From: an uncultured Candidatus Saccharibacteria bacterium
Lineage (GTDB): Bacteria > Patescibacteriota > Minisyncoccia > Phycocordibacterales > UBA2100
Direction: 5' to 3'
DNA: 64,000 nucleotides
Assembly: GCA_964623775.1 (NCBI GenBank)
Contig: CAZUVH010000005.1
Span: forward strand, 1,546 to 65,545
Shown in pieces: positions 5,990 to 53,018 of the stretch (positions are counted from its first letter, which is position 1; each line of letters begins with the position of its first letter). The notes beneath the pieces were generated by a model. That model saw only the letters and a program-made list of their open reading frames with translations, was not told the DNA's origin and did not search any database. The translations under genes were made by a program, and so were the position numbers.

Positions 5990-5999
5990 CAAACAAGGA

Positions 6000-6817: not shown

Positions 6818-6850
6818 AAAGGGCGGAAAGCATATTCCGCCCTTCAGACG

Positions 6851-7415: not shown

Positions 7416-7501
7416 GCGTCGTTACCCAAGTGGTCAAAGGGGACTGGCTGTAAACCAGTTGACTTCGGTCTTCGTTGGTTCGAATCCAACACGGCGCACC
7501 A
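7416..7501 (+). tRNA. tRNA-Tyr(GTA), CCA encoded
   Basis: GCGTCGTTACCCAAGTGGTCAAAGGGGACTGGCTGTAAACCAGTT + long variable arm + GTTGGTTCGAATCCAACACGGCGCACCA. Confidence 0.85.
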
Positions 7502-7542
7502 AATGAAAGAGCGCTCGGTTGAGCGCTCTTGGAGGCAATTTC

Positions 7543-20322: not shown

Positions 20323-20395
20323 GGCCACATGGCGAAGTAGCAACGCGGCGGTCTGCAAAACCGCTACTGGGTGGGTGCAACTCCCACTGTGGCCT
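20323..20395 (+). tRNA. tRNA-Cys(GCA)
   Basis: GGCCACA...GCGGTCTGCAAAACCGC...GTGGGTGCAACTCCCACTGTGGCCT. Confidence 0.75.
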
Positions 20396-20419
20396 CAAGT
20401 CAGTTATAGTAGTGCTAAA

Positions 20420-20502
20420 GCCGGGGTGGCGGAATGGTTTACGCAGAAGACTTAAAATCTTTGACCAGCAATGGTTTGTGGGTTCGAGTCCCACCCCCGG
20501 CA
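20420..20502 (+). tRNA. tRNA-Leu(TAA)
   Basis: GCCGGGGTGGCGGAATGGTTTACGCAGAAGACTTAAAATCTTT + long variable arm + GTGGGTTCGAGTCCCACCCCCGGCA. Confidence 0.85.
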
Positions 20503-20560
20503 CAGATTGAGCGGAGCGAAAGTTGAGCTGGGGAGCACAGCGTCTGCGCGCTGTGCGTGA

Positions 20561-20581
20561 CCGAGTCCCACCCCCCGCACA
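20561..20581 (+). repeat. 21-bp direct repeat of the tRNA-Leu(TAA) 3' end (20485-20505), one mismatch
   Basis: CGAGTCCCACCCCC(G/C)GCACAG twice, 76 bp apart. Palindrome GCACAGCGTCTGCGCGCTGTGC between the copies. Confidence 0.6.
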
Positions 20582-20590
20582 GAGCTCAAA

Positions 20591-21658
20591 TTACAGTTGT
20601 CGCGCTGACCTGCGAAGCGGGAGCGTGAAGTAGAGCGTTGTTGAGGGATTTCTCCCCGCGCGTGACTCCACTTTGATCTTCCCTTTATGCGCCTTGATTA
20701 TTTGGGATGCAAAATAGAGTCCGAGTCCGCGCTCATCCACCGTATCGCCAATTTCGGGCTGCATAAACATTTGCTCAAGATCCTTTTTTGCGACACGCGG
20801 ACCACGACTGGTCACCGACACGACAGCGCACCCGTCACGACTCTCGACGGTGACATCAACCACTGAGTCCGGCTCCCCATGCGAGAGGGCACTCTCAAGG
20901 AGGCGCATAATCACCTGCCGAATGCGTGGAGCATCAATATAGACGAAACGATCAAGTGTATCGTGCACGCGAATCAGACGCCTCTCCCACGCATTACTGA
21001 CGGTGGTCGAAGTGCTTTTTACAAGCTTGCCGAGATCCGTCACCGCGAGAGAGACGTCGGTCACTCCTTTTTCGTAGGAGCGAATATCCACGAGCGTATC
21101 TGAAAGGCCTCTCAATTTGGCGGTCTCTTCGCGCAATTCCATAGTCTCTGGCCCGCGTTTCCCTGCTCCGAGCGTCAGGAGCTCGCCGAGCACTGCTACT
21201 GAAGCGAGCGGCGTGCGCATATCGCGTGCGGCCATTTTAATAAATGCCGATCGATACTGCTGTACCTTTTTACTCTTGGTTACATCATCAAATATTTGCA
21301 CGTAAAGAATTCGGGAGCGCACCTTTATCGGGTATGTCGTCGTCCGGATATTGAAGAAGCGTCCGTTTTTCTTTCGATTAATTATTTCCTCCGAAATAAA
21401 CGGTTTCATTTTTTTAAGATGACTCCACATCAGTCGATATACCCGCTGCGGCGTTTTTCCGCTTTGCAGTATCCGCGGATTTTTCCCTTTTACTTCGCGG
21501 AAAGAATATCCAGTGATCTTTTCCCATGCGGGATTCACATACACTATTTCCGCCCTATCATCCGTCATCAGCGTGGGCCTCGGAGAGAGGTCGGCAAGTA
21601 TGCGAAAAGCGGCCACATCTTCATTTTGTTCAGACGTTTTCATGTTTCCTTTGGTCAT
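20591..21658 (-). CDS. PAS-domain sensor histidine kinase homolog (HisKA + HATPase_c). Phospho-acceptor His not conserved
   Basis: PAS region VNPAWEKITGYS. H-box region reads AARDMRTPL where HELRTPL is expected. GLGL G2 box present. Confidence 0.7.
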   Translation of the reverse strand: MTKGNMKTSEQNEDVAAFRILADLSPRPTLMTDDRAEIVYVNPAWEKITGYSFREVKGKNPRILQSGKTPQRVYRLMWSHLKKMKPFISEEIINRKKNGRFFNIRTTTYPIKVRSRILYVQIFDDVTKSKKVQQYRSAFIKMAARDMRTPLASVAVLGELLTLGAGKRGPETMELREETAKLRGLSDTLVDIRSYEKGVTDVSLAVTDLGKLVKSTSTTVSNAWERRLIRVHDTLDRFVYIDAPRIRQVIMRLLESALSHGEPDSVVDVTVESRDGCAVVSVTSRGPRVAKKDLEQMFMQPEIGDTVDERGLGLYFASQIIKAHKGKIKVESRAGRNPSTTLYFTLPLRRSARQL

Positions 21659-21668
21659 ATATCCACAG

Positions 21669-22970
21669 ATGCTGTCAACATACAGTATCGCTGGCGGCTT
21701 GCCACCAGTCTACATGAAATGTTCTAATGAGATCATGAATTTTATATCCGATCTTTGGTCGCTCGCTTACTATTTTATTGTTCAGGGTTTCGGGCTCGTT
21801 CTTGCCGGCGCTGCTGCCGTCATTTTTCTTTATCTCGTGCTCCGCAAGCATCACTCGCTCCAAAATACGCTACTTCTCAGCGCTTTTTTCGTGGGCGTCA
21901 TGCTCTTCTTCTGGTTCCCCGTCGGCGTACCGCGTAATCTGGCATACCCATTCGGCATCACCACCTACGGTCCGGCCGACGGCCCCATGCTCCCGATCAA
22001 AAACGTATTTACGTTTTTTGCAAATTTGGGCGATTTTGAGCGCGTCAAAGATATTGCGCGCGATCCGCGCGACGTACCACCACCTATTACACGCACGGCA
22101 CCTTCCGAGGTCGAGATCACTATCACTACAAAAGAGGTTCTCTCTGAAATTGCCCCTGGTGTCGTCGTAAATTACTGGACATTTGACGGTACGGTACCGG
22201 GGCCCTTCCTGCGCGTACGCGAAGGCGATACCGTACACCTGACACTCAAAAACGACCCGTCGAGCCTCCACATGCATTCGATCGATTTGCATGCAGTGAC
22301 AGGCCCTGGTGGTGGCGCTACCGTCACCGACATCAAGCCGGGCGAGAGCAAGACGATGAAGTTCAAGGCTCTCAATCCCGGACTCTACGTATATCACTGT
22401 GCGCACCCCAACGTCGCCAATCACATGGCGCACGGTATGTATGGCCTCATTCTCGTGGAACCGAAAGAGGGCCTGCCGAAAGTCGATAAGGAGCTCTACG
22501 TGATGCAGGGCGAATTCTATACAGCAAGCCGCGGCAAGAAAGGTCTGCAAGTGATTGACTCAGGGACAATGCTCGATGGCAATCCGTCGTTTGTCGTATT
22601 CAACGGCCGCGTCGGCGCGATCTCCAAAGACAGGCTTTCGGTCAACCAGGATGAAAAGGTGCGCATGTACGTGGGCAACGGCGGAGTAAATCTGATCTCG
22701 TCGTTCCACGTGATCGGCGAAATATTCGACACCGTGTACCCAGAAGCGCAAATGGGCGGAGCCAACTTCCACAATGTACAGACCACGATCGTACCCGCTG
22801 GCGGTGCAGCAATTGTTGAATTTACTCCGGAAGTACCGGGTAATTACATTCTCGTCGATCACGCGCTCGCACGCCTCGACAAGGGCGCCTGGGGCACCAT
22901 GAGCGTAACCGGTGAGCAACGACCTGATATATTCTTCGGCGATCCTTCGGGTGGCGGCAGCGGTCACTAG
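21669..22970 (+). CDS. nirK: Copper-containing nitrite reductase NirK-like (two-domain cupredoxin) with N-terminal membrane segment. Start uncertain (21669, 21714 or 21735)
   Basis: Type-1/type-2 Cu ligand blocks HMHSIDLHAV and YVYHCAHPNVANHMAHGMYG. Confidence 0.75.
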   Translation: MLSTYSIAGGLPPVYMKCSNEIMNFISDLWSLAYYFIVQGFGLVLAGAAAVIFLYLVLRKHHSLQNTLLLSAFFVGVMLFFWFPVGVPRNLAYPFGITTYGPADGPMLPIKNVFTFFANLGDFERVKDIARDPRDVPPPITRTAPSEVEITITTKEVLSEIAPGVVVNYWTFDGTVPGPFLRVREGDTVHLTLKNDPSSLHMHSIDLHAVTGPGGGATVTDIKPGESKTMKFKALNPGLYVYHCAHPNVANHMAHGMYGLILVEPKEGLPKVDKELYVMQGEFYTASRGKKGLQVIDSGTMLDGNPSFVVFNGRVGAISKDRLSVNQDEKVRMYVGNGGVNLISSFHVIGEIFDTVYPEAQMGGANFHNVQTTIVPAGGAAIVEFTPEVPGNYILVDHALARLDKGAWGTMSVTGEQRPDIFFGDPSGGGSGH

Positions 22971-23037
22971 GAAAAGTTTGCGTGACGCCTTTTGTGGTGT
23001 TAAAGTCCTGCCGGATCAAAATAGGAGGATTACTTCG

Positions 23038-23583
23038 ATGAGTGAACGAATTGAGATGCCACTGCCGCGGGATAAGATGGGCAGATGGGAGATTTGCCAT
23101 CTTGTACCGAAAGCAGCGGGCCGTCCCCACACCTACGAATTTATCGATTATCTCGCCACACAATTCGAGGTGGACGTAACGACTCCGGAAAATTTTTTAC
23201 TTCAAGTTGAGCTCGCATTTGGAGACCTCGGGAGAGGGACTGATGCATTCTCGGGTGCACCGATCCGGCACGAGGCAGTTGATCGCGTCCCCACAGTCGA
23301 GAGGTACGTGCGAATGGATCTCCCTGCGATCATTGATGTACTTTTTTCTCCCGAATATGCGGCGGCCATTAAAAAATGCCAAGAGGAAGTCCTCGCCGAG
23401 GCCAAGAGACTCGAGCCGATATTCAGCGTTGCAAAAAGACGAGAGCAGGAACAAATGGTCGATGCCCACCTGGAGTCGATCAATACTCCAAAGGGGCCAT
23501 CGAGACCCCTCACTGCCGCTCTTTCGAAGCCACGCAGACGAAAAGCGAAAAAGGTACGAAAGCGCACAAGGAAGAATAAGTGA
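23038..23583 (+). CDS. Hypothetical protein with lysine/arginine-rich C-terminus
   Basis: AGGAGG RBS + ATG at 23038. Confidence 0.5.
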   Translation: MSERIEMPLPRDKMGRWEICHLVPKAAGRPHTYEFIDYLATQFEVDVTTPENFLLQVELAFGDLGRGTDAFSGAPIRHEAVDRVPTVERYVRMDLPAIIDVLFSPEYAAAIKKCQEEVLAEAKRLEPIFSVAKRREQEQMVDAHLESINTPKGPSRPLTAALSKPRRRKAKKVRKRTRKNK

Positions 23584-23657
23584 TCTCAAGCGCCACCCCA
23601 TACGGGTGGCGTTTCTTTTTTGGAATGGTAGCGTTGACTCAGAAAAAGGAGTCTCAG

Positions 23658-24449
23658 ATGATAGTACGTGAGCTGAATAAATACTTGCGGTCACTCGTCG
23701 ACCTCCCATCGATCGGTGTCTGCCGTAGCGTTGATCGCATCATTGTCGGCAATTCGGAAATGGAAATCACCAAGGTCGGCGTGTGTTGGATGCCATACCT
23801 GTCGACACTGCGCAGGGCTCATGAGCTCGGTATCAATACACTCGTCGTGCATGAACCGACCTTTTACGAACACTGGGAAACCTCGCCACCCGCCCTCGCC
23901 GCAGAACGCGCCGAAAAGATGAAATTCATCTCAGAGTCTGGTATCGCGATCATCAGATGCCATGATGTGCTCGACGCGATCCCTGATTGGGGAGTTCCCT
24001 TCTCGCTCGGTAAGGCGCTCGGATTTACCAACGCAGACATTGTCCGTTCGCGTCGATATTTCAACGTCTACGGATTAAAGCAGCCGCTTCGGGCATACAC
24101 GGTGGCGTATCGGCTCGCAAAAAAGCTGCGTATTTTTGGGCAAAGGTATTCTCACTTCGCAGGAGACCCGGATCGTATCATCGAAAGCGTCGGTGTCGGG
24201 ACGGGCTACAACTGCGACCCGATCGAATACAAAGACATGGATGCAGGCCTGTACATTGCTATCAGCGATCGCGCGATGTCGTGGATCCAACCAGTCGCCG
24301 CGCAGGATTTCGGACAACCGCTCCTTGTCATCGAGCACGGCGTGAGCGAGGAGCCAGGAGTCATCGCACTCTACGAGCATCTTCGTGAGCGATTCAAAGA
24401 CATTGAATTCACTCACTTTGCCCAAGGCCATTCATATGCCTGGGTATGA
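23658..24449 (+). CDS. Nif3-family (DUF34) dinuclear metal-centre protein
   Basis: AGGAG RBS. Nif3-like N-terminus ...INTLVVHEP. Terminator GGCGCCGACCTTGAGGTCGGCGC at 24452-24485. Confidence 0.6.
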   Translation: MIVRELNKYLRSLVDLPSIGVCRSVDRIIVGNSEMEITKVGVCWMPYLSTLRRAHELGINTLVVHEPTFYEHWETSPPALAAERAEKMKFISESGIAIIRCHDVLDAIPDWGVPFSLGKALGFTNADIVRSRRYFNVYGLKQPLRAYTVAYRLAKKLRIFGQRYSHFAGDPDRIIESVGVGTGYNCDPIEYKDMDAGLYIAISDRAMSWIQPVAAQDFGQPLLVIEHGVSEEPGVIALYEHLRERFKDIEFTHFAQGHSYAWV

Positions 24450-24539
24450 AATTCGGCGCCGACCTTGAGGTCGGCGCTTTCTGTATTACAGGACCAGACT
24501 CTTTAAAAATCCTGATTTTGCGGTAATATCCTAAGTAAT

Positions 24540-24612
24540 CCGCCCTTAGCTCAGCTGGTAGAGCAGATCCCTCTTAAGGATAAGGTCGAAGGTTCGATCC
24601 CTTCAGGGCGGA
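24540..24612 (+). tRNA. tRNA-Lys(CTT)
   Basis: CCGCCCTTAGCTCAGCTGGTAGAGCAGATCCCTCTTAAGGATA-AGGTCGAAGGTTCGATCCCTTCAGGGCGGA. Terminator at 24623-24650. Confidence 0.8.
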
Positions 24613-24882
24613 CATGAATGAAAAAGAGTGCCTGCGCACTCTTTTTCTTTACATGTCCGAGCCGGAGCGATGTTCCACAAGCTTGCGGGACCGCGAGGAG
24701 GGGTCGCGGCCGAGGCGAGTGGCGACGAGCCGAGAGCCGTGACGACAGGTCCGAGGCGGAGCGTTGTGAGGCCAGCAGGCCGAACCGCGAGCCGTGGTCA
24801 GAAAATTTTTGCCGCGACGGCGGGCAAAATATCCGTGAGGGCACGTAAAGAAAAACCCCGCCTGTAAAGACGGGGCTTGGGG

Positions 24883-26175
24883 TTACACACACCGACGAAT
24901 GTACGGTGCATTGATTGCCCACAACTCATCGAGAATCTTGCGCGCGGCATCCATATCATCGACCACCGGGTCGACAAAGAGTGCCTGGAGCGCGAGTTCT
25001 TTGGAGCCGTGCACGGCGGCCTCGACTGCAAGCTGCTGATTACTGACAGCAGGAAGAAGCAATTTTGCGCATGCGTCCGGCAAAGTGCTGTTGAACGGAT
25101 ACGGATTGAAGCCCGTTGCATTCGGCAAAAGTGGTACTTCTACAGCCGCTTCGCGCGGTAGATTCGGCACAAATCCCGGACCGTTGTACACGACGCCGGA
25201 TTCTACGAGTTCATGCCGATTGTGCATGATGCCCGCGATGATGGGCGCGGCTTTTTCGCCCGTCGGCCGTTCGAGCCACGTCGCCGCATACGCAGCGTCC
25301 TCACTCGCGTGCTTGAGATACTTCGCGTATTTTTTCCGGTCACGTTCGTCTCTCCGGTAATCGTACCCGCTCCGACACCCTTCGCCTTGCCAGCCGTACG
25401 GAAGATATTCTCCCGTATGACTGTCGCCGCACGTGGGCCAATAGCCGAAGGTACGAAACAGCTCGCGCACGAGCCTCTGACGCGTGGGATCAAACGCGCG
25501 TTCCTTTTCTCGAAGCAGTGGATAGAGATCTTCACCTGTACCCTTGCGTGTAATGCTCAAGAGCCACTGAAAGTGGTTGATGCCCGCACCGTGTACCGCA
25601 ATCTCTTCGTCCGGTACGCCAGTGATTTCCGATATGAGCCAGCGGGAACCGAAAATACCGTGGCAGAGGCCAAGCGCCTTCACCTTTGTATATTTGCCGA
25701 GCGCACACACGATCCGCGATTCAGGATTCGAGAAGTTGATGAAATACGCACCTGCGGCCTGCCGCTCGATATCGCGAACAATATCAAACACCGCCGGTAT
25801 GGTCCGCATGGTAAAGAAGAGTCCGCCGGGACCGCCGTTTTCACCGAGTGACTGCCGTATGCCGTGTTTGCGCGGGACACGGAAATCGTGCTTCCATAAT
25901 TCGTTGCGATTGAGCGCGATCGAATTGATGACAAATTCTGCGCCGTCCAGTGCGAGGCGTCGATCGACCGTGTGCTCGATCCTCAGGCCTCGGCCTGTGT
26001 GGGCGTTCCAATGTCGCACCATCGCAGCCATTTGTTCAAGCTTCACTTTGTCCGTGTCGACAAGAGTGAGCGTGCTACCGCAAAAGTCGTCCGAGAAAAA
26101 AAAGTCCTTGAGCGACGGGCCGAAGCAGTTGCTCCCGACGCCGATCGCCACAATTTTCGTCCTTATATTCGCCAT
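24883..26175 (-). CDS. Glycoside hydrolase family 4 (NAD- and Mn-dependent glycosidase)
   Basis: N-terminal Rossmann KIVAIGVGSNCFGP. GGAGG RBS before ATG at 26175. Confidence 0.7.
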   Translation of the reverse strand: MANIRTKIVAIGVGSNCFGPSLKDFFFSDDFCGSTLTLVDTDKVKLEQMAAMVRHWNAHTGRGLRIEHTVDRRLALDGAEFVINSIALNRNELWKHDFRVPRKHGIRQSLGENGGPGGLFFTMRTIPAVFDIVRDIERQAAGAYFINFSNPESRIVCALGKYTKVKALGLCHGIFGSRWLISEITGVPDEEIAVHGAGINHFQWLLSITRKGTGEDLYPLLREKERAFDPTRQRLVRELFRTFGYWPTCGDSHTGEYLPYGWQGEGCRSGYDYRRDERDRKKYAKYLKHASEDAAYAATWLERPTGEKAAPIIAGIMHNRHELVESGVVYNGPGFVPNLPREAAVEVPLLPNATGFNPYPFNSTLPDACAKLLLPAVSNQQLAVEAAVHGSKELALQALFVDPVVDDMDAARKILDELWAINAPYIRRCV

Positions 26176-26305
26176 GTTTTCCTCCAATGGCCACTGCACT
26201 TACTATAGCAGCAGTACATGCCAGAGGACACGGGGCGCTCGACAATCGCTACGAAGAGGCAATAATACACAGAGGAAATAGACGTAAACAAGAGAGGAGG
26301 CGCGG

Positions 26306-27361
26306 ATGATCGGTAAGATCATAGTTTCTGTCCGCTCCTTCTTCCGGAGCGGCATTATTCGATGCTTTTGGGGCAACAAAAAATTCGCTTTCCTCGCATA
26401 TGGAATGCTCGCCATTTTGATGTTGGTCACGAGTGCCAATGTCTGGGGAGCGTTTTATTTTGCGGAGCTTGTGAAAACGCACGGCGATATGCTGCAGTAT
26501 TCGACGACCGAAGGCTCGTATCTGATAATCGTGTTCAAGGTGCTTTTCATCTGGCTTGCCATTTTCGCCACGACCGATGCGCTCAAGTATTTCGTGAAGA
26601 GCCGCCTTGCCGCCTACTGGCGCCGTGAAGCACGGTACTGGTACGAAGAGCGCGCCGAGGCCAATCCGCAGAAGGTCAGTCATATCGGACAGCGTATTAT
26701 CGACACACCGAAAGAGATCGTCGAAAAAATGCTGGATGTCATAGTCGACGGGTATCGTGCAATCAACTCGCTCATTTTTTTCGTCCCGATGACGATACAA
26801 CTGAGCACGCATTTCGAGCCGGTTGCGTACGCCTTCATGCAGTCCTATCTCGGTTTCGGCTTTCACATTCCGTGGCTCTTGTTGTGGATCCTTGTCATCA
26901 TATTTCTCATCGAGACCGGGGTCTCGCATATCATCGGCAGACGACTCCCCCAGCTCGAATCCGAGAAGCAAAAGGCTGTATCACTTGCACGAAAGATCGC
27001 TGAGAAGTCGCACTCCAACAACCATAGCGGTCGACTCTTGCCGACACTTGCGGATAATCATCTTCGCAGGCGTACCAAACTTGCGATCAAGATGCTTTTC
27101 ATCCGCGAAAAACGGCAGATCAATTGGCAGTCCGCGCTCGTGTTGTGGCAGATCACGTACGGCATTCTCTGGTCGATCGGCCCCATGCTCGTCATTGGAT
27201 ATTTTGTGGCAGTCCTCCTTACGGTCACGCTCGGCATTATGTCCAAGGCCATGGCCGCACTCAATGAAGTCCATTCATCTCTCGCCGTGATTCCCAATTC
27301 GTGGCCAAAAATCATGGATATCCGGGGCGGTCTAAAATTGCTCAGGCGTATCGAGGAATGA
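26306..27361 (+). CDS. Hypothetical polytopic membrane protein (possibly SbmA/BacA- or ABC-TMD-like)
   Basis: GAGGAGG RBS. About 6 TM helices. Terminator at 27383-27415. Confidence 0.5.
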   Translation: MIGKIIVSVRSFFRSGIIRCFWGNKKFAFLAYGMLAILMLVTSANVWGAFYFAELVKTHGDMLQYSTTEGSYLIIVFKVLFIWLAIFATTDALKYFVKSRLAAYWRREARYWYEERAEANPQKVSHIGQRIIDTPKEIVEKMLDVIVDGYRAINSLIFFVPMTIQLSTHFEPVAYAFMQSYLGFGFHIPWLLLWILVIIFLIETGVSHIIGRRLPQLESEKQKAVSLARKIAEKSHSNNHSGRLLPTLADNHLRRRTKLAIKMLFIREKRQINWQSALVLWQITYGILWSIGPMLVIGYFVAVLLTVTLGIMSKAMAALNEVHSSLAVIPNSWPKIMDIRGGLKLLRRIEE

Positions 27362-27491
27362 CGGTCTGACACATTCCCTCTCCCGCTCCACATCAGGTGG
27401 AGCGGTTTCTTGTTTACGGGTCACGCTACACCCACCCTTTCGAGAGCGAGATTTCCTGCTACCATTCCAATCAGAAGAAAGAGAGGAAACA

Positions 27492-28778
27492 ATGTCGGCA
27501 AGAAACATCTACGAGGCACCGCTGCCGCTTCATCTGCCGTTCGTACATAAAGGTTCTGCAACTGCCTCGCATCAGGTAAACGGCAGTCCAGGCAGCAATT
27601 GGGATATTTTTGAGCGAGAAGTGTGGGCAAAAGAAATGCTTGCGCAGGGCAAGAATCCCGAAGATTTTATCGCGGGCAACGCATGCGAATTCATGACGCG
27701 CTACCGTGACGATTTCAAACGCGCGCACGAGCTCGGCCACAACGCCATCAGAATAAGTTTTGATTGGGCACTTGTCGAGCGTGAGCGCGGAAAATTTGAA
27801 ACTGAAGTTCTCGTGAAGTGGAGAACTATGGTCGAGACTGCGATTGCGTGCGGTCTTGAGGTCGTCGGCACCGGCTATCATTGGACGCATCCTGGCTGGT
27901 TTGAGGCGCTCGGCGGCTGGAAGCATTCGGACGCACCAATGTTGTACGCAAAATTCTTTGCAAAGCTACTGGAATACGTCGGCGATAAAGTGCGCTGGTG
28001 GACTGTATTCAATGAGCCCAGCTGGTATCTGCCATCTTCGTACCGCTGGGGAATCAATCCCCCGCGAGAAGCGAGCGAGGACGGCTACAAACGTGCCTTC
28101 GACAATATGGTCTGGGCGCACAGGCATGTATACGCACTCATCAAGCAACGCAACCCTACGGCGATGGTGGGCATCGGAGAGGCTGACAATTGGACTGAGT
28201 ATACCGATCCGTCTATGGAATCGAACGAAGTTCATTTTGTCGATCGGATCATCAATAAGCTCGATTTCATCGGCGTTCAGATGTACATGCATTCGAAGTA
28301 CGACCCCGCCGGCAACAAACTCGGCTGGGATGGTCACGACCCCTGCGTCGAGCACCCTGTGCAATCCGACATGCCGTGGGGCATGTGCCCGCGACTTGCA
28401 TACGAGGTCGTAAAGAAATATGCCGCACGCTATCCCGGCAAGCCGATAATGATCACGGAGCACGGTCATGCGGTGAGGGAAATGGTCGACGACAATCGTC
28501 GCTGCTGGTATATCTGGGAGTCGCTCAAGTGGCTCTCAAAGGCGATCGACGAGGGCGTGCCATTGATCGGCTACCTGCACTGGAGCTTGCTGCGTAACTT
28601 CGAATGGCTGAAGGGCTGGGAACAAGATTTCGGCCTCATCCATGTCGACCTTAAGACGCAAACGCGCACCGAGCGTACCTCGGCGCACCTTCTGCGCGAC
28701 ATCTTCAATGCTGGCGCGCTCACGCAGGAGATCGCCGACAAATATGCGCATGTAATCAAACATCCGCACTGCTCATAA
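27492..28778 (+). CDS. Glycoside hydrolase family 1 beta-glucosidase
   Basis: Acid/base TVFNEP and nucleophile ITEHG motifs. RBS GAGAGGAAAC. Terminator at 28784-28812. Confidence 0.85.
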   Translation: MSARNIYEAPLPLHLPFVHKGSATASHQVNGSPGSNWDIFEREVWAKEMLAQGKNPEDFIAGNACEFMTRYRDDFKRAHELGHNAIRISFDWALVERERGKFETEVLVKWRTMVETAIACGLEVVGTGYHWTHPGWFEALGGWKHSDAPMLYAKFFAKLLEYVGDKVRWWTVFNEPSWYLPSSYRWGINPPREASEDGYKRAFDNMVWAHRHVYALIKQRNPTAMVGIGEADNWTEYTDPSMESNEVHFVDRIINKLDFIGVQMYMHSKYDPAGNKLGWDGHDPCVEHPVQSDMPWGMCPRLAYEVVKKYAARYPGKPIMITEHGHAVREMVDDNRRCWYIWESLKWLSKAIDEGVPLIGYLHWSLLRNFEWLKGWEQDFGLIHVDLKTQTRTERTSAHLLRDIFNAGALTQEIADKYAHVIKHPHCS

Positions 28779-28818
28779 AAATCAAAGTCCCCGCAGTGCG
28801 GGGACTTTTTTATAGAAC

Positions 28819-29088
28819 TTATGGTCGGACCTGGACACAGGGGCCGCCGGGGACACAGAAACCGACGCCGGGCCTACGATCTTCGTAGTAGTCGCGATCG
28901 TCGTAATACCGCCGCGGTGGCGCATATTCGTATCGCGGCTCGACATGCCGTCGCGGCACGCAGTACGGATCGAGCGCCACATAGGCGCCGTTGGGGTAGT
29001 GGCGATGCGGACAGCCGTTGTAGTGGGCTGATGCGAGAGAGGTGGAGCCGAGAATCACAAATGCCGACAAGAGCAGTGCTTTGCGCAT
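28819..29088 (-). CDS. Small secreted Cys/Tyr/Arg-rich protein
   Basis: AGGAGG RBS. Signal peptide MRKALLLSAFVILGSTSLASA. Confidence 0.5.
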   Translation of the reverse strand: MRKALLLSAFVILGSTSLASAHYNGCPHRHYPNGAYVALDPYCVPRRHVEPRYEYAPPRRYYDDRDYYEDRRPGVGFCVPGGPCVQVRP

Positions 29089-29189
29089 GTATACCTCCTT
29101 GAACAATGCGACCGAGGGAAATTATACATCAGGAAAAACCTCTTTCCCAAGAGGCATAAATCACAAAAATGCTATAGGATACAAAGATT

Positions 29190-29272
29190 GGGCAGGTGGC
29201 GGAATTGGTAGACGCACTAGGCTTAGGACCTAGCGGAGTAATCCATTGGGAGTTCGAGTCTCCCCCTGCCCA
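29190..29272 (+). tRNA. tRNA-Leu(TAG)
   Basis: GGGCAGGTGGCGGAATTGGTAGACGCACTAGGCTTAGGACCTAG + long variable arm + GGGAGTTCGAGTCTCCCCCTGCCCA. Confidence 0.85.
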
Positions 29273-29280
29273 CAAAGAAA

Positions 29281-29604
29281 TCAAGGATTGCCACCAAAAT
29301 TAATCGGCGCGGTGACGTTGTTGATGCGGCTCGTGTCAAAATTGCCCTGCAGGGCACCAAGCTGGAAAGTGTTGTCGAGAAGCGCGAGGATGCCATAGAC
29401 AGAGATCATAATGAGCATACCGACGATTCCCCAGAGCATGTGCTGCTTGCCCTCGCTCCTCTTACTTTCATTCTCAACATTGATGAGGAATTGAACCAAT
29501 CCCCATATAAACATGAAGAATCCCGCAGCAAACACGAGCAGGATCGCTGGATCGATTATGTATGTGACGAAGCGTCCGATGAGATTTTCTGTTGAGCCGC
29601 CCAT
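29281..29604 (-). CDS. Small double-TM protein, paralog 1 of the pilin-like (VirB2/TrbC-topology) array
   Basis: TM1-NESKRSEGKQHMLWG-TM2 pattern shared with neighbours. Confidence 0.5.
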   Translation of the reverse strand: MGGSTENLIGRFVTYIIDPAILLVFAAGFFMFIWGLVQFLINVENESKRSEGKQHMLWGIVGMLIMISVYGILALLDNTFQLGALQGNFDTSRINNVTAPINFGGNP

Positions 29605-29657
29605 AGGTACTGATTATACGTGAAAAAGCCCCGCTCTGCGGGGCTTTTTAGGGATAT

Positions 29658-30008
29658 CTAGAATGCACCCGTATTAATTTGGATACCCTTCGGAATGACA
29701 GGGTCTGTCGAGGTTACCTTGAAGGTGCTCTGGAGGAGGCGAATGATGCCCCAGATCGACACCATCACGAAGATAGCGACGACGCCATAGAACATAATCT
29801 GCAAGCCTTCAGACTTCTTCTCACCTACCTCGGTGAGGTACTTGATCAAGCCCCAAAAGAAGATGACGATCGCGAGCGTAATGAAGAGGCCGATAGCGGC
29901 ATTGAGGAAGGTATTGGCAAGAGCAAGGGTGTCGAGGAGCGTGGCCGCACTCGCCAAGGCCGGCAAGAAAAGTGATGCTCCAGCTGAAATGCCAATTAAT
30001 CTTCGCAT
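29658..30008 (-). CDS. Small double-TM protein with signal peptide, paralog 2 of the pilin-like array
   Basis: MRRLIGISAGASLFLPALASA signal. TM1-VGEKKSEGLQIMFYG-TM2. Confidence 0.55.
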   Translation of the reverse strand: MRRLIGISAGASLFLPALASAATLLDTLALANTFLNAAIGLFITLAIVIFFWGLIKYLTEVGEKKSEGLQIMFYGVVAIFVMVSIWGIIRLLQSTFKVTSTDPVIPKGIQINTGAF

Positions 30009-30098
30009 AATATCAATATAGTTTATTGTTAGTCCTTTAATCGTACTGCCCTCGGCGCAAAATACAATACGGATTTTGAGCCGAATGGGGATAGTGCT

Positions 30099-30503
30099 TT
30101 AGTGTTCATCTTTGCCCCCTCCACCGCTTCCCTTAATAACCTCGATCACGATATAGCCCACGAAGAGTATTGCGATAATCGCGATAAGTGCTGTAACTGC
30201 TGCGGGATGGGATATGAAGTATTGCTGGACCGCAACCAGTACAACGAGCACGAAGAGCGTCACGACCCCCCACTCCATGATACGAATGCCTTCTGAGCGC
30301 CCAATAGTGCCGATTCGAACCATCCATACAATAAGACCAGCCACAAACGCAATTATGGCACCGACGAGCATGAGCCCAACGAATATGTTGAAAAGTCCGA
30401 ATATATCAGCTCCGGTGATACCAGCTCCTGAGCCACCGACAGTCCCCGTACCTGTCGCGGCAACGAGCCCATGTAGAAATCTATTTTTATTATGTGTGTT
30501 CAT
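30099..30503 (-). CDS. Small double-TM protein, paralog 3 of the pilin-like array
   Basis: Gly-rich N-terminus. TM1-GRSEGIRIMEWG-TM2. 4-bp overlap with the upstream gene. Confidence 0.5.
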   Translation of the reverse strand: MNTHNKNRFLHGLVAATGTGTVGGSGAGITGADIFGLFNIFVGLMLVGAIIAFVAGLIVWMVRIGTIGRSEGIRIMEWGVVTLFVLVVLVAVQQYFISHPAAVTALIAIIAILFVGYIVIEVIKGSGGGGKDEH

Positions 30504-30916
30504 TGGAAAGTACCGGGTGGTACGGGTGGGGCAAATGTTCCTGAATTGTCTTGCTCTACGAATCCTCCACCGCCCCCACCGGCGCTCGGAAATTGATCGC
30601 CGCCAAAGAGAGAATTTTGTAGAAGCTGAAGTATCCCCCAGATCGACACCATCACAAAAAGCACGATGATGCCCCAGAAAAAGTAGGCCTTTATTTTTTC
30701 GGCATTCGCCGCGCCTCCCTTTTGGAAATTCATGACATTGGTCGAGACACCGTAAAAATAGACGACGAGTCCAAGTACGAGGAGCACAACGACGGCGTTG
30801 TTCATCAATACCACGAGCACGTTGGCAAGTTCTTGGAAAGTCTTGGGCGCCGCCAAGGAGACTGCTGGTATCGCCAGGAGTGCGATTGGTGCAAGCTGAA
30901 GGAAGCGACGCATCAT
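30500..30916 (-). CDS. Small double-TM protein with signal peptide, paralog 4 of the pilin-like array
   Basis: MMRRFLQLAPIALLAIPAVSLAAP signal. TM1-KGGAANAEKIKAYFFWG-TM2. Gly-rich tail. Confidence 0.5.
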   Translation of the reverse strand: MMRRFLQLAPIALLAIPAVSLAAPKTFQELANVLVVLMNNAVVVLLVLGLVVYFYGVSTNVMNFQKGGAANAEKIKAYFFWGIIVLFVMVSIWGILQLLQNSLFGGDQFPSAGGGGGGFVEQDNSGTFAPPVPPGTFQ

Positions 30917-31281
30917 ATACCAGTGGTCAGCTGCGAGACCGTACCGCCGATCAGGGTGGCAATGACCCATGCGCCCATGATAAGTAATGCACCAATGATG
31001 ACGTACAAGAAATTCTTTTTTGCTTCGCCGAGCTTGCCTACATTCCCCTGTGCAGTGACGAACAAAAAACCGGCATACACTACAAAGAGTGTAATGATTG
31101 GGAGCGCAACCATCACGAGGACCCTGAGTGCGCCCGCAATGAATTCTGAAATGTCTTTGAACTTGAGCGGGTTTTCGAGCTGAGCGCCCTGCTGCGCCTG
31201 TGCGTGAGCGAGCGCAAACATTGCAAAAAAGACAATCACTGCGGGCAGTAGGACTATGAGCGGACGAATTGTTGCATACAT
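30913..31281 (-). CDS. Small double-TM protein with signal peptide, paralog 5 of the pilin-like array
   Basis: MYATIRPLIVLLPAVIVFFAMFALAHA signal. TM1-GKLGEAKKNFLYV-TM2. Confidence 0.5.
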   Translation of the reverse strand: MYATIRPLIVLLPAVIVFFAMFALAHAQAQQGAQLENPLKFKDISEFIAGALRVLVMVALPIITLFVVYAGFLFVTAQGNVGKLGEAKKNFLYVIIGALLIMGAWVIATLIGGTVSQLTTGI

Positions 31282-31288
31282 ACGATTA

Positions 31289-32629
31289 TTATAGCCCGAG
31301 TATTCGGGCGATTTCCTGATCGGCCCTTTGGACTGCCTCGCTCACGCTTGCTGCGCCACTTGTCGTGCTTTCAATCATCCCCTGAAAGGCGGCATTTGTT
31401 TTTTCAGGATCAGGATCAATCCATGCGCGGGAAATGATCGCCGCTCTGTTGAAGACCTCCTGATCCCCTGTCGTCTTTTGCGCCAGTACATCGCGGCGCG
31501 CAGAAGGAATGCCGATTGCGGTCGAGAACGCCTTGCTCAAATCCGTTGACGCAAGAAGGTAGGCAGCCGTGACGGCTCCCGCAGGATTCCTGCTCCCGCG
31601 CGCTGTCGCAAATCCGAATACATGTCCATACGTGAGCGAGCGCGCACCGCCGCGGATCTGCGGAAGTGACGCGGGAGCAAAATTAAGATTGGGATTCATG
31701 CGCCGTATCAATGGCTCTTCGCTTGCGTATCCGATATAGATCCCGAGATCACCTGCCGCAAAAGCAGCGCGCGAACTGGCCATCGCGCGATTCCAGGAGT
31801 AGTCGTTCTTCGACGGATCAGCAAAGCCGGTGTAGAAACGGAGCGCGCTCTCTGCTGCCTGTGCCGCGTCTCCAGCTCTCGACGAGAGCGCCGGCACGAG
31901 GCGATTGGAGCCATCGAGCGCCGTGATAGATCCGCCTGCCTGCATGATGAGCGTTGCGAGGATGTCTTTTGCGTTGTCGATATTTTTGTATTCACCAAAG
32001 GCAATCGCGCTTTTCTTGATCGCGTTGGTCTGATCCCGTACCGTGACCGAATTTTGGTTGACGCTCGCGCTTCCATTATTGATATATGTCGACATCGGAA
32101 TGAGTTCATCCCAATACGACGGCGGCTTCGCGTACCCGGCAGTCGCCAGAAGATCGCGATTCCAATACATTACGAGTGGATCGTCGAGAAACGGTATCGC
32201 GAGTATTGCCTCGAGATTCTTCGAAACGAACGGGTTGGCGGCCTCGATAAACGTCGCCTCAAACTGCTCAAGCGGCAGCGATTCAAAACCAATCGGCAAG
32301 ATCATCCCGGCGTTCTTCACAGCGTTGTCTTGGCGAAGGATGAAGAGATCAGGCCCTTGGCCACTCGCGAGTGCTGTCGTGAGATCCGCCTCGTATGTGG
32401 CAGGATCGTGCTGCTCGTATGAGACCTGTGCAAGCGCAGGTGTCGTCTCCGATGCCTGCCGAATGACCGCGTTGACAGCGGTCTCGTCGAGCGTGCCCCA
32501 AATACGCACGCTCCCCACGCCATTGTTGCCCGTACCGCCGACAGCAAACGCAAAGATGAGGACACCCGAGACGGCAAAAGCGCCGAAAACGATGAGTAAT
32601 ATGGTCTGGAATTTTGAAAGTGATTTCAT
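31289..32629 (-). CDS. Membrane-anchored extracellular solute-binding protein (SBP family 1-like)
   Basis: N-terminal TM MKSLSKFQTILLIVFGAFAV. DPLVMYWNRDLLATAGYAKPPSYWDEL block typical of sugar-binding SBPs. 7-bp gap to the pilin-like genes. Confidence 0.6.
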   Translation of the reverse strand: MKSLSKFQTILLIVFGAFAVSGVLIFAFAVGGTGNNGVGSVRIWGTLDETAVNAVIRQASETTPALAQVSYEQHDPATYEADLTTALASGQGPDLFILRQDNAVKNAGMILPIGFESLPLEQFEATFIEAANPFVSKNLEAILAIPFLDDPLVMYWNRDLLATAGYAKPPSYWDELIPMSTYINNGSASVNQNSVTVRDQTNAIKKSAIAFGEYKNIDNAKDILATLIMQAGGSITALDGSNRLVPALSSRAGDAAQAAESALRFYTGFADPSKNDYSWNRAMASSRAAFAAGDLGIYIGYASEEPLIRRMNPNLNFAPASLPQIRGGARSLTYGHVFGFATARGSRNPAGAVTAAYLLASTDLSKAFSTAIGIPSARRDVLAQKTTGDQEVFNRAAIISRAWIDPDPEKTNAAFQGMIESTTSGAASVSEAVQRADQEIARILGL

Positions 32630-32633
32630 AAAA

Positions 32634-33221
32634 TTATTTTTTAGATGCGTGATTGGTAGGCTTAAAGATGAGGCCATAGTGGTGCGCCCCTGCAGGAAAA
32701 TCGCGCAGGAATTCAAACCCATTATCACGAGCGTATGCAAAAGCCATCTCTTTTTTCACAACTTCACTTTTTTGGGGCCCCATACCGCCCCACGAATCAC
32801 TCCAGTCGATCACAATAAGCTTACCGGTGGGCTTTAAGATCCTGTGCGCTTCGATAAAAACGGCTTCCTTGTTTTCGATCTGAAAAAGGAGATTCGAGAT
32901 GAGCACTATATCGAGATGGCGGTCAGTGACCTTGCTGCTGCGACGCGCCTCGAGATCGGCCCAGATTACCGAAACATTCTTAAATCCGCGTTTTGTCGCT
33001 TCGTTTTGCGTACGCTTCAAAAGATCGCGCTGGACGTCGATTGCATATACATGCCCGCTGCCGGCGAGCCACTCTGCGATCGCAAGGACATAGTGCCCGC
33101 TACCTGACCCAAAATCAGCGACATGCATTCCATGGTCTATGCCAAAAGTCGCCACATTCGCATGCGGATGCGCAAAACCTTCCGTATTGAGCGGTTTATG
33201 ACGATGTGCAGTGTGCTGCAT
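32634..33221 (-). CDS. Class I SAM-dependent methyltransferase
   Basis: Motif I VADFGSGSGHY. Confidence 0.75.
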   Translation of the reverse strand: MQHTAHRHKPLNTEGFAHPHANVATFGIDHGMHVADFGSGSGHYVLAIAEWLAGSGHVYAIDVQRDLLKRTQNEATKRGFKNVSVIWADLEARRSSKVTDRHLDIVLISNLLFQIENKEAVFIEAHRILKPTGKLIVIDWSDSWGGMGPQKSEVVKKEMAFAYARDNGFEFLRDFPAGAHHYGLIFKPTNHASKK

Positions 33222-33286
33222 CGCTTTAAATTATAGCAACAAAAGAGGCGCCCTATTCGGGCGCCTCGTAATGAACTGTGGGCAGC

Positions 33287-33772
33287 TTATGCCAGACTCT
33301 CGAGAACTCGGATCTCTGTGCCTGCGTCAACCATCTTGATGCGTCGCGATACCTCATCAGCTTCACTTTTTATCTGCCATAGCGAAGCCGTTATCGCCGC
33401 GAACATCTGATCTGAAATGCTCTTTGGACCAGTACCGTCCACAAGCTTACTGAGGTCGAAATTAATTTTTACTTCTTTTTTTATGTCGCTCTTGGAGTAC
33501 ACTGTGTTGATACAGATGACTGACTTCGTCAGAAGTGTGGTATAGCTGGCACCCCCCATATACTTGAATTCGATATACTCGACAAGCGGCTCAATCCACT
33601 GATGTGCAGCCATTTTTTCTTGTAAAAGTTCCACCGTGCGGCTCAGCGATGATTTGCAGTGGCGTGAAGTTGGCTTTTGTTGCCCACCACAAAGTTCGTG
33701 TCCCGGGTATATCATCGAATCAGTCAGTATTCTCGTCATTTCAACCTCCATAGGCCTCGCAGGACCTTTCAT
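33287..33772 (-). CDS. Hypothetical protein
   Basis: 161-aa ORF, no recognisable motif. Confidence 0.4.
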   Translation of the reverse strand: MKGPARPMEVEMTRILTDSMIYPGHELCGGQQKPTSRHCKSSLSRTVELLQEKMAAHQWIEPLVEYIEFKYMGGASYTTLLTKSVICINTVYSKSDIKKEVKINFDLSKLVDGTGPKSISDQMFAAITASLWQIKSEADEVSRRIKMVDAGTEIRVLESLA

Positions 33773-33937
33773 GACTGAACCGTCATAGTTCAGCTGACGA
33801 ATTAATACAATAAAATATCAATGATGTAAAGCGGCGGTGTTCGATATACATACAAATCTCACGGTCGTGAGAGTAGTGTGTAGTGGTTAGAAATTTTAGA
33901 GTTTTCGTACAACAAAAGGCTCCGCGATGCGCAGAGC

Positions 33938-34183
33938 CTACTCTTTATTCAAATACTTTTTGTCGGGCTCAAACAATCCCTGTCTCACATATCCGCACGA
34001 CTCGTACAATCCACCGCCGAGCGGATAAGGATGATCAAAATGCCACTCCGATATGTCCTCACCAAAAGCCGCAATGATAGTGAAGATCACATACCTCACC
34101 TTGTCCGGAGAATCTGAGGTGATCCGATATTCAGTCAGATCTTTGATTCTCGTCGTGTCTTTATCGATCAGGGCTTCGCGCAT
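33938..34183 (-). CDS. Small hypothetical protein, paralog P3 of a 3-member family ending in ...GYV
   Basis: Own-strand terminator GGCTCTGCGCATCGCGGAGCC-TTTTGTTGT. Shares YRITSDSPD / HP...G..Y..GYV pattern with P1 and P2. Confidence 0.4.
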   Translation of the reverse strand: MREALIDKDTTRIKDLTEYRITSDSPDKVRYVIFTIIAAFGEDISEWHFDHPYPLGGGLYESCGYVRQGLFEPDKKYLNKE

Positions 34184-34301
34184 GTGCGCCCCCGTTCATA
34201 CTGACCCGCAATGGATCAGCTTCACCAATCATTACGCCCAATGCATACCTCGGTCAAGCGACAAAAAAGAAGACCCTGCTGTGAAGCAGGGTCATTCGTT
34301 T

Positions 34302-34517
34302 CTATTCGACGATACTCAGGCTCGAGACGACGTATCCTCGTGTCCTGCATTCATTGCCGGTACACGATATCGGGCGAAACAACGACCCGATGACGAGGGG
34401 GTGCTTCTCGATGTCGCTGACGATCTCCTGAACCGCTTCCACGGTGCTGGCGACCACGTCGTATCGCCATGAACCGGGACCATCTGGTCTCCGTCTTACG
34501 TTGAGTGAATTACGCAT
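34302..34517 (-). CDS. Small hypothetical protein, paralog P2 (start trimmed to avoid frame overlap)
   Basis: RRPDGPGSWRYDVVASTVEAVQEI...HPLVIGSLF...TRGYV. About 35% identical to P1. Confidence 0.35.
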   Translation of the reverse strand: MRNSLNVRRRPDGPGSWRYDVVASTVEAVQEIVSDIEKHPLVIGSLFRPISCTGNECRTRGYVVSSLSIVE

Positions 34518-34530
34518 TACACTCTCCTGT

Positions 34531-34770
34531 TCACGTCTGTTGTATGGGATAGATTCGTCGCTGCACATATCCTCGTGTCTGATATTTACCTTCCGGAGTC
34601 CGGAAGGGGTTGTGAAACTCAGACGCAACGATATTGGGTCCATTCATGATCTCGGAAATTTTCGTCTGGATCTCTCCTTCTGAGTCTCCAGTAATCTGAT
34701 AGGCGGTGTGGCCCGGGTGATCCGGCAACGCCCTCATTTCGACATAGGCTGTCATGGACTGCCTCCCCAT
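34531..34770 (-). CDS. Small hypothetical protein, paralog P1, immediately downstream of gyrA
   Basis: LPDHPGHTAYQITGDSEGEIQTKISEI...GPNIVASEF...TRGYV. Confidence 0.4.
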   Translation of the reverse strand: MGRQSMTAYVEMRALPDHPGHTAYQITGDSEGEIQTKISEIMNGPNIVASEFHNPFRTPEGKYQTRGYVQRRIYPIQQT

Positions 34771-52690: not shown

Positions 52691-53018
52691 AATCCCTTCG
52701 AAACCCGCTCCGGCGGGTTTCTTTTTTTATACTGGACTTCCCTGTCAATTATTGTCCCGCTTGATTTTGATGAAGAAAGAATGACGCGCAACTGTGCGGA
52801 ATGAGCGCTTCATGAAATTTTTTCAACTTTTTTCCCGTTGACCCATGTATATCAACCGATAAGGTGATCTCAGTATGCAAACGATTCCATTCGTGTCACC
52901 TGCATGTGCACGTGAATGGCTGCATACGCATTAGCAGCATTACCAAATCACTAAAAACATTACATGCGTAATCAAATTGCGAAATCGCAATAGTGGGTCT
53001 TGGGTACGCAACTCATTT

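Follow-up and report, generated by a model that had tools for sequence, protein, structure and literature searches.

Introduction

Much of the diversity of uncultivated bacteria falls within Patescibacteria, which appear to live at the expense of other cells. Here we describe an array of five genes resembling those for the pilins of type IV secretion systems (T4SSs); the array lies, together with the genes for a solute-binding protein (SBP) and a methyltransferase (MTase), in a 64-kb stretch of contig CAZUVH010000005.1; this whole stretch is referred to below as the window, and all positions are given in its coordinates.

Tandem arrays of 2–11 VirB2-like genes, with ~25% identity within arrays, have been reported from Patescibacteria, 441 of them in 383 assemblies, and have been interpreted as a possible means of host-range or antigenic variation (Quinonero-Coronel et al. 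2025, PMC12102498). Genetic tests exist for one system only, that of Southlakia epibionticum, in which the T4SS and its pilin array are essential: six PF18895 genes (SEML1_0014–0019), encoding proteins of 103–185 aa, lie inside the T4SS locus, and since each of them was scored essential, the pilins are not redundant (Wang et al. 2023, PMC10633639). In a 2025 review, the potential to form conjugative pili is said to make Patescibacterial systems unique among monoderms (PMC12857230).

The locus in the window shares with the published arrays the phylum, the matches to PF18895 with or without PF04956, the protein size of ~100–185 aa, the presence of five to six divergent tandem paralogs (~25% identity) and an extra solitary pilin gene. 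However, whereas the Southlakia array sits inside a T4SS cluster with VirB4, PrgI and VirB6-like genes, the array described here has no T4SS gene within 10 kb in related genome loci and, unlike the published arrays, forms one predicted operon with the SBP and MTase genes next to gyrA. Variability and host range have been stressed for the published arrays, whereas this one consists of fixed one-to-one orthologs under purifying selection. The published arrays have also been reported to be most abundant in Microgenomatia and Saccharimonadia, whereas the present one belongs to Paceibacteria (Kaiserbacteria-like).

More distant likenesses are found outside the phylum. With the TrbC/VirB2 pilins of Gram-negative T4SSs (the Agrobacterium T-pilus and the RP4 pilus), the small proteins have in common a long signal peptide, a pair of hydrophobic helices and a short loop of basic character, and one of them, P5, aligns with nearly the whole TrbC model; unlike those conjugative pilins, they display, in searches with P5 and P2, no pairwise similarity to plasmid proteins, belong to a host with a monoderm-type envelope, number five to six subunits instead of one major pilin and are not encoded adjacent to virB3/virB4. 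The Mbov_0395 family (NF045849) of Mycoplasma integrative and conjugative elements likewise comprises small two-helix membrane proteins of the same profile family, but these are encoded by single genes in mobile elements with transfer genes, not by chromosomal core genes in an array. Several tandem divergent virB2-like genes are also present in Bartonella and Anaplasma, where they are read as antigenic or host-adaptation variants (discussed in PMC12102498), whereas the orthology and low ratios of nonsynonymous to synonymous substitution rates (dN/dS) found here point to distinct, non-redundant subunits.

No mention of an SBP- or methyltransferase-linked pilin operon was found in the literature searched. 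Pilin arrays as such are already known in Patescibacteria; the fixed arrangement with SBP and MTase, away from secretion machinery, appears not to have been described before. The explanation that we favour, and consider on balance probable, is that the locus is a conserved core-genome module, consisting of the MTase, a membrane-anchored sugar-type SBP and five distinct hairpin proteins of the VirB2/TrbC superfamily, with a sixth (P6) encoded elsewhere, which serves a T4SS.

Gene organization of the locus

Seven closely packed minus-strand genes occupy positions 29281–33221 and are arranged, in the order of transcription, as MTase-SBP-P5-P4-P3-P2-P1, where P1–P5, together with the separately encoded P6, denote the small pilin-like proteins:

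32634–33221, minus strand: MTase, class I S-adenosylmethionine (SAM)-dependent methyltransferase, 195 aa, opens the conserved module
31289–32629, minus strand: SBP, membrane-anchored family-1 solute-binding protein, 446 aa, MalE-like carbohydrate-type fold
30913–31281, minus strand: P5, TrbC/VirB2-like T4SS_pilin, 122 aa, signal peptide and helical hairpin
30500–30916 (revised start), minus strand: P4, pilin-like hairpin, 138 aa, variable Gly/Pro-rich C-terminal tail
30099–30503, minus strand: P3, pilin-like hairpin, 134 aa, with an additional third hydrophobic helix and a charged tail at the C-terminus, fastest-evolving member
29658–30008, minus strand: P2, pilin-like hairpin, 116 aa, most conserved member, conserved tail VTSTDPxIPKGIQ
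29281–29604, minus strand: P1, pilin-like hairpin lacking a signal peptide, 107 aa, closes the array in every case

The original prediction had described five consecutive genes, followed upstream by the SBP and MTase genes, and this layout was confirmed, the five genes lying at 29281–31281; also confirmed were the spacers of 7 nt (SBP-P5) and 4 nt (MTase-SBP). Its statement that the small genes are separated by tiny gaps or 4-bp overlaps holds for the P5/P4 and P4/P3 junctions, both of which are ATGA overlaps, but not for the spacers between P3 and P2 (90 nt) and between P2 and P1 (53 nt). The longest open reading frame (ORF) for P4 spans 30500–30970; its start was revised to 30916 (MMRRF..., 138 aa), most likely the genuine one, because the ATG at this position overlaps the P5 stop codon and matches the starts of the orthologs.

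Similarity of the small proteins to T4SS pilins

The small proteins were compared with the models T4SS_pilin (PF18895) and TrbC/VirB2 (PF04956) of Pfam, with gathering cut-offs of 26.6 and 27.9 bits, respectively, and with the Mbov_0395 pilin-like conjugal transfer protein model of NCBIfam (NF045849; cut-off 40 bits). The scores against PF18895 were as follows:

P5: 33.4 bits, E 4.8e-8, above the cut-off
P6: 29.4 bits, E 8.4e-7, above the cut-off
P1: 25.9 bits, E 1e-5, just below the cut-off
P2: 22.6 bits, E 1e-4, just below the cut-off, but the top-ranking family for this protein
P4: 14.0 bits
P3: no hit

P5 also aligned with positions 10–97 of the 98 in the PF04956 model (27.6 bits, E 3.6e-6, which is 0.3 bits below the cut-off), and a precomputed match to this family is present in many P5 orthologs; P6 scored 12.6 bits against it. 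The best score against NF045849 was that of P1 (27.4 bits), for which this family was the best match in NCBIfam, the other proteins reaching ~15–16 bits, and all remained well below the cut-off.

When 43–44 orthologs each of P1–P4 were scanned against Pfam (E≤0.01), PF18895 was matched by 43 of 44 P2 orthologs (best E 4.8e-9), 37 of 44 P1 orthologs, 10 of 43 P3 orthologs and 3 of 44 P4 orthologs. It was the most frequent Pfam match in each of the four groups, any other family being found in at most five members. P1–P4 are mutually homologous, with HHalign probabilities of 90–99.8% (P4-P2 99.8%, P4-P1 98.9%, P3-P2 98.8%), while P5 and P6 share 30% identity. Judged from these profile comparisons, the similarity to PF18895 is far beyond chance, and the assignment of P1–P6 to the VirB2/TrbC-related T4SS_pilin superfamily, which had been proposed from the architecture of the proteins, is supported by the matches of both the proteins themselves and their orthologs. 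The earlier view of five paralogs of the same architecture stands as regards membership in one pilin-like superfamily, but by the same comparisons the small proteins are two subfamilies (P1–P4 and P5/P6), not five equal paralogs.

According to hydropathy analysis, P2, P4, P5 and P6 each have a signal-peptide-like segment and, after it, two long hydrophobic helices, which are joined by a short Lys/Glu/Gly loop. The architecture expected for the family (a signal peptide, then two hydrophobic helices with a short polar loop) was thus found with two exceptions: P1, which lacks a signal peptide although both helices are present, and P3, whose N-terminus is weak in this genome and which, with three predicted hydrophobic segments, has an extra third helix followed by a charged tail. 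In the confident AlphaFold2 (AF2) model of P5, built with 47 homologs (predicted local distance difference test score, pLDDT, 83.7), helices span residues 6–30 (signal), 44–76 and 81–120 (hairpin). An aromatic-Gly motif at the start of helix 2, noticed in the original prediction as a conserved aromatic/Trp-Gly position, is near-invariant in the ortholog alignments (W57/G58 in P1, W79/G80 in P4 and W77 in P3).

The solute-binding protein and the methyltransferase

The SBP matches PF01547 (SBP_bac_1) with 58 bits and PF13416 (SBP_bac_8) with 45.8 bits and has one N-terminal transmembrane helix. Its AF2 model (pLDDT 89.9) displays the two-lobe periplasmic-binding fold and in Foldseek searches matched MalE and other maltose- and sugar-binding proteins (E~1e-20, TM 0.61–0.78); the closest PDB sequences are those of family-1 sugar SBPs. 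Many Trp, Asp and Asn residues are invariant in the alignment of SBP homologs, and such invariant residues are usual in carbohydrate binders. The protein thus resembles MalE-type family-1 SBPs in its matches to SBP_bac_1 and SBP_bac_8 and in a fold that superposes on maltose- and sugar-binding proteins, but differs from them in its N-terminal membrane anchor, in the lack of an adjoining permease or ATPase in the window and in its constant co-transcription, as predicted from the operon, with pilin-like genes. No ATP-binding cassette (ABC) permease or ATPase for the SBP was found in the window or in the annotated loci L004 and L170 (the latter is described below), and only housekeeping gene families are recurrent in the flanks of relatives.

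The MTase matches Methyltransf_31 of Pfam with 74 bits and several related models above their cut-offs and is an ordinary class I SAM-dependent enzyme. Its orthologs lie directly upstream of the SBP gene in the related loci with contigs long enough to show it, and the SBP gene is kept immediately upstream of P5; both hold for L170 as well. That SBP and MTase belong to the same conserved operon as the array, as the original prediction had it, is supported by the conserved order across relatives, L170 included, and by the 4-nt and 7-nt spacers and the ATGA overlaps, which point to translational coupling of both genes with the array.

Conservation of the gene order

Searches with P5 identified 431 homologs; the matches listed were 58–100% identical, and the named ones among them came from Kaiserbacteria, Paceibacterota or Parcubacteria. 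On this sequence evidence the organism is a Kaiserbacteria-like Patescibacterium. The membership in the Candidate Phyla Radiation (CPR) that had been suspected from the window is thereby borne out, both homologs and loci coming from Patescibacteria. The complete Kaiserbacteria genome CP066682.1 contains the same operon after gyrA, with one-to-one ortholog identities to the window of 70% for P1, 72% for P2, 65% for P5, 46% for P4 and 35% for P3, whereas the paralogs within a genome are only 22–38% identical to each other.

In order to describe the distribution of the module, one genome per GTDB species was scanned, yielding 77 loci, of which 76 were from Patescibacteria. An independent metagenome scan seeded with P2 gave 80 loci from >535 matches; these were close orthologs only and did not widen the phylogenetic range. 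The order GyrA-MT-SBP-P5-P4-P3-P2-P1 (MT, the MTase) was found in 76 of the GTDB species loci and in the 80 metagenome loci wherever the contig was long enough, except for a few loci in which one member was undetected or an extra P2- or P1-type copy was present. The copy number of the paralogs, compared across related genomes, is thus fixed in ~150 loci apart from these few. Extra P2-type copies were seen in L010 (11067–11426), L032 (8254–8685), L040 (10460–10921), L165 and L166, and L165 also has an extra P1-type copy; they sit inside the array or a few kb downstream and represent limited duplication against an otherwise fixed background.

A more divergent version of the module was found through a distant P6 homolog on a contig of JGI metagenome 3300036766 (L170), the GyrA, MTase and SBP of which are 66%, 44% and 40% identical, respectively, to those of the window. 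Here gyrA, MTase and SBP are followed by six PF18895 genes (5604–7809): one P6-type, one P5-type, three P2-type and, as the final gene, one P1-type without signal peptide. This arrangement shows that the MTase-SBP-pilin module predates the Kaiserbacteria clade and that all small proteins of the module belong to the pilin family. Since the array of L170 begins with the P6-type gene, P6, which stands alone in the window, is part of the same system; the sixth paralog noted beside a tRNA-Trp gene is therefore well placed with the others.

In the window, P6 lies 23 kb from the operon:

6000–6389 (within the ORF 6000–6452), minus strand: P6, solitary T4SS_pilin of the P5 subfamily, with signal peptide, Cys-containing N-terminal segment and hairpin; 129-aa form
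5919–5990: tRNA-Trp (ARAGORN), beside P6

The homologs of P6 align over 100% of the 129-aa form, and in the Kaiserbacteria clade its orthologs are solitary and located between the genes for ClpB and ribosomal protein L33. The N-terminal motif PCNGxDCT is common to the P6-type protein of L170 and P6 of the window, which suggests that this segment is conserved and disulfide-bonded. An L33 (rpmG)-like ORF is present beside P6 at 5304–5492 (plus strand); it was missed by the automatic gene calls on the matching Logan contig (L085, 15479–16462), where ORFs on the opposite strand were called instead. A ParB gene runs across the left edge of the window and a MiaA (IPPT) gene lies nearby, as in relatives.

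Selection acting on the module

Median identities of the relatives to the window are 66% for P2, 59% for MTase, 56% for P5, 54% for P1, 53.5% for SBP, 46% for P4 and 34% for P3, compared with ~83% for GyrA across the clade; the module therefore evolves faster than GyrA. Conservation is highest in helix 2 and lowest in the P1 and P4 tails and the third P3 helix. Pooled dN/dS was calculated by the Nei-Gojobori method from 11 independent locus pairs, over alignable positions that do not cover indel-rich parts of the tails:

GyrA: 0.054
MTase: 0.144
SBP: 0.147
P1: 0.151
P4: 0.192
P2: 0.197
P5: 0.215
P3: 0.223

By region, the values were 0.10–0.16 for the hairpin cores and 0.20–0.29 for the exposed tails. 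P1–P5 are all under purifying selection, with no sign of diversifying selection at the alignable positions of these locus pairs. The original prediction of a five-fold tandem amplification under diversifying pressure is therefore not supported: what had been taken for an amplified gene comprises five old, distinct orthologous groups in fixed order, with low dN/dS gene-wide as well as in the tails.

Boundaries and internal signals of the operon

Three further features delimit or interrupt the transcription unit:

33245–33267, minus strand: terminator-like GC hairpin, closing the gene upstream of MTase
29623–29649, minus strand: stem-loop with T-run, terminator- or attenuator-like, between P2 and P1, read from the sequence
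29190–29273, plus strand: tRNA-Leu(tag) (ARAGORN), convergent with P1, a syntenic operon boundary

Downstream of the hairpin at 33245–33267, a TATAAT sequence (~33228–33233, minus strand) is located 8 nt before the MTase ATG and likely marks the start of the transcription unit. A second TATAAT (29613–29618) follows the hairpin between P2 and P1 and is likewise located 8 nt before the ATG of P1. No obvious Shine-Dalgarno sequence is present between TATAAT and ATG in either case, and the transcripts starting at MTase and P1 may be leaderless or near-leaderless. The P2-P1 hairpin has a 12-bp stem followed by a T-run and, in RNA folding, a free energy (dG) of -21.5 kcal/mol (z -3.5). A stable hairpin (dG≤-10) is found at this position in 34 of 68 relatives, few of which have T-runs, and in view of this partial conservation a conserved terminator was rejected. 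The P3-P2 spacer (30009–30098, minus strand) is unusually long for this operon, and its counterparts in relatives measure ~100 nt (111 nt in the case of CP066682.1); an internal promoter or an RNA element could be located in it.

Between gyrA and MTase, three small ORFs of 161, 81 and 79 aa are present (33287–34770, minus strand). A Pfam scan of the 161-aa ORF gave no match, and none is carried by the gene calls of the matching contig. This stretch differs in length and content among relatives, CP066682.1 having an unrelated 145-aa gene, and constitutes a variable spot beside the rigid operon.

At the other end, P1 has tRNA-Leu(tag) next to it in 26 of 27 relatives scanned, with tRNA-Lys, tRNA-Leu(taa) and tRNA-Cys coming after this tRNA gene. 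Its possible role as an integration site, or as the mark of one, was rejected, the tRNA gene being part of conserved ancestral synteny. In the window, the tRNA genes for Leu(tag), Lys(ctt), Leu(taa) and Cys(gca) are scattered across a 9-kb region (20323–29273), while in compact relatives they are clustered right after P1; the genes between the dispersed tRNA genes code for glycoside hydrolases of families GH1 and GH4, an SbmA/BacA-like membrane protein, NIF3 and a multicopper oxidase. It seems that the tRNA cluster acts as an insertion hotspot for cargo genes.

Link to secretion machinery and rival explanations

Several results weigh against a module serving a T4SS. Scans of the unassigned ORFs with Pfam and NCBIfam models identified no VirB4, VirB6, PrgI, TrsD or VirD4 in the 64-kb window, and the only Walker-A proteins in it are MiaA, ClpB and IF-2, plus an incidental motif match in a TROVE protein; the absence of VirB4, VirB6 or an ATPase partner had been correctly noted before. 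Nor are T4SS genes found within 10 kb of the operon in related genome loci, where the flanks are housekeeping only. P3 and P4 of this genome lack a significant PF18895 score, and P5 is barely linked to P1–P4, its best HHalign probability being 53.5% (with P4, aligned full length). Of the similarity to pilin families to be expected in profile and structure searches, the former was obtained in the matches to PF18895, but Foldseek and PDB profile searches gave no significant match: the P5 model retrieved nothing from the PDB below E=1, the solved VirB2/TraA pilins being absent among the matches listed, and the search of PDB sequences with the P5 family profile returned 0 matches. The Foldseek result is uninformative, because a two-helix hairpin is too simple to discriminate. 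Searches of 72,556 plasmids by tblastn with P5 and P2 gave no match at E≤0.01, and the relation to classical conjugative pilins is therefore at the profile level only. We know of no T4SS with an SBP or a methyltransferase as a structural partner, and the two could be co-transcribed with the array for unrelated reasons. VirB4 was scored present in 8 of 10 Kaiserbacteria genomes carrying the operon, and the other two, both draft metagenome-assembled genomes, were scored negative (Table S1 in Quinonero-Coronel et al. 2025, PMC12102498). As no T4SS gene is found in the window or near the operon in relatives, the proposed link to a T4SS rests on family membership and on the genome-level co-occurrence taken from that paper.

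The main rival, which we regard as unlikely, dispenses with the T4SS: the SBP would pass a ligand, probably a carbohydrate, to a five-hairpin membrane complex of ~11 helices, or signal through it, the MTase would act on the ligand or on a subunit, and the pilin fold would have been re-used as a scaffold for a channel or receptor. Such a module would account for SBP and MTase being the only invariant, translationally coupled neighbours of the array, down to 66% GyrA identity, for the absence of T4SS genes near the operon and for the two genomes scored VirB4-negative; the third helix of P3 would hold this protein in the membrane. The SBP, too, has no ABC permease or ATPase of its own in the window, and its flanks in relatives offer only housekeeping families, but orphan SBPs are common and a partner permease could be encoded elsewhere. 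To our knowledge, no transporter or receptor family is made of VirB2-like hairpins, whereas the T4SS pilin is the best and only consistent family match of the small proteins. Moreover, the homologous array of Southlakia is inside a T4SS locus (PMC10633639), and VirB4 is present in most of the operon-bearing genomes (PMC12102498, Table S1).

Two other explanations fare worse. Recently amplified and diversifying subunits of a surface filament, providing antigenic or host-range variation in the manner of the Bartonella and Anaplasma VirB2 arrays, have been suggested for Patescibacterial arrays generally (PMC12102498). The low identity between paralogs (22–38%), the faster evolution of the tails and P3 relative to the hairpin cores and the occasional extra P2- or P1-type copies (in L010, L032, L040, L165 and L166) are in line with this idea, which is nevertheless largely refuted and very improbable for the present locus: copy number, order and one-to-one orthology are fixed in ~150 loci, dN/dS is 0.15–0.22 gene-wide and does not exceed 0.29 in the tails, the tail motif of P2 is conserved, and the finding that each member of the Southlakia array is essential alone argues against interchangeable variants (PMC10633639). 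It is more improbable still, to the point of being nearly dismissed, that the small proteins are unrelated to secretion (holin-like, bacteriocin-immunity or generic membrane proteins) and match pilins by hydrophobic composition. Hairpin folds are indeed generic, and single orthologs gave sporadic weak matches to other membrane families, including one holin (E 3.9e-4), but the holin-like or bacteriocin-immunity alternative, raised along with the original prediction, is contradicted by the dominance of PF18895 among the P2 and P1 orthologs (43 of 44 and 37 of 44, any other family in five at most) and by the full-length matches of P5 to two independent pilin models. Furthermore, P5 has no tblastn match at E≤0.01 among 50,697 phage records, genes for lysis or bacteriocins were not found in the vicinity, and the setting is a conserved core-genome neighbourhood.

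Proposed model of a T4SS-serving module

If the locus serves a T4SS, as we favour, then by analogy with VirB2-type pilins the hairpin proteins would be inserted by Sec/YidC in such a way that both termini face outwards and the basic loop lies inside; after cleavage by signal peptidase they would make up a stored pool in the membrane. From this pool, a VirB4-type ATPase encoded at another locus would extract the subunits and assemble them into a hetero-oligomeric conduit or a short pilus. The assembler would be the monoderm-type T4SS of Patescibacteria (VirB4/TrsD/PrgI/VirB6-like), the genes of which usually lie at another place in Paceibacteria, often close to dnaA; virB4 has been reported to lie often near dnaA/dnaN in this group (PMC12102498). 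Each paralog would have its own, non-redundant place in the structure, as is suggested by the one-to-one orthology observed here and the individual essentiality of the pilins in Southlakia. P5 and P6 would be the canonical TrbC-like subunits, P1, P2 and P4 a second subunit class with exposed C-terminal tails, and P3, given its extra helix and charged tail, might be a base or adaptor that stays in the membrane. The SBP may be a dedicated accessory, for example for recognition of a sugar, a ligand or a host glycan at the apparatus, and the MTase another, modifying a subunit or the ligand; these two roles are speculative and the least certain step of the model.

Other features of the window

A 735-aa ORF with ~11 predicted helices (57000–59207, minus strand) was considered as a VirB6-like protein and rejected, as it matches a fused major facilitator superfamily (MFS)/spermidine synthase model (NF037959, 42.8 bits, cut-off 40); its C-terminal domain is aminopropyltransferase-like. 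Beside it are the genes for a secreted polysaccharide deacetylase with a carbohydrate-binding module (54876–56876) and for a 595-aa secreted protein without family assignment (52977–54764).

The gene at 12713–14389 (minus strand) encodes a Ro60/TROVE protein with a von Willebrand factor A (vWA) domain (PF05731, 142 bits; PF25045, 212 bits). Two tandem matches to RF01656 are located upstream of it on the same strand, at 14444–14512 (47.5 bits) and 14533–14599 (46.8 bits), with a gathering score of 38. RF01656 is a family of nematode stem-bulge RNAs, which are related to Y RNAs, and the region 12713–14599 looks like a Ro60/Y-RNA module in a Patescibacterium.

Implications

The constant association of MTase, SBP and pilin-like genes also allows a bolder proposal, which we put forward as doubtful and quite unlikely: that the three components make up a single undescribed machine, in which an obligately hetero-oligomeric VirB2-like conduit of five to six subunits would be combined with its own membrane-anchored sugar-binding receptor and a modifying MTase for the sensing or uptake of a host glycan or a host-derived nutrient in ultra-small Paceibacteria, either with a T4SS ATPase encoded elsewhere or without a T4SS.

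The presence of a fixed set of orthologs under purifying selection across a clade of Paceibacteria favours a multi-subunit structure over antigenic or host-range variation. The constant coupling of this set to a sugar-type SBP and an MTase, with no linkage to virB4, provides testable candidates for the ligand that is recognised and for the modification of a subunit. If the SBP is indeed part of the apparatus, a secretion-pilus scaffold would be linked to the capture of ligands, a connection for which no T4SS precedent is known.

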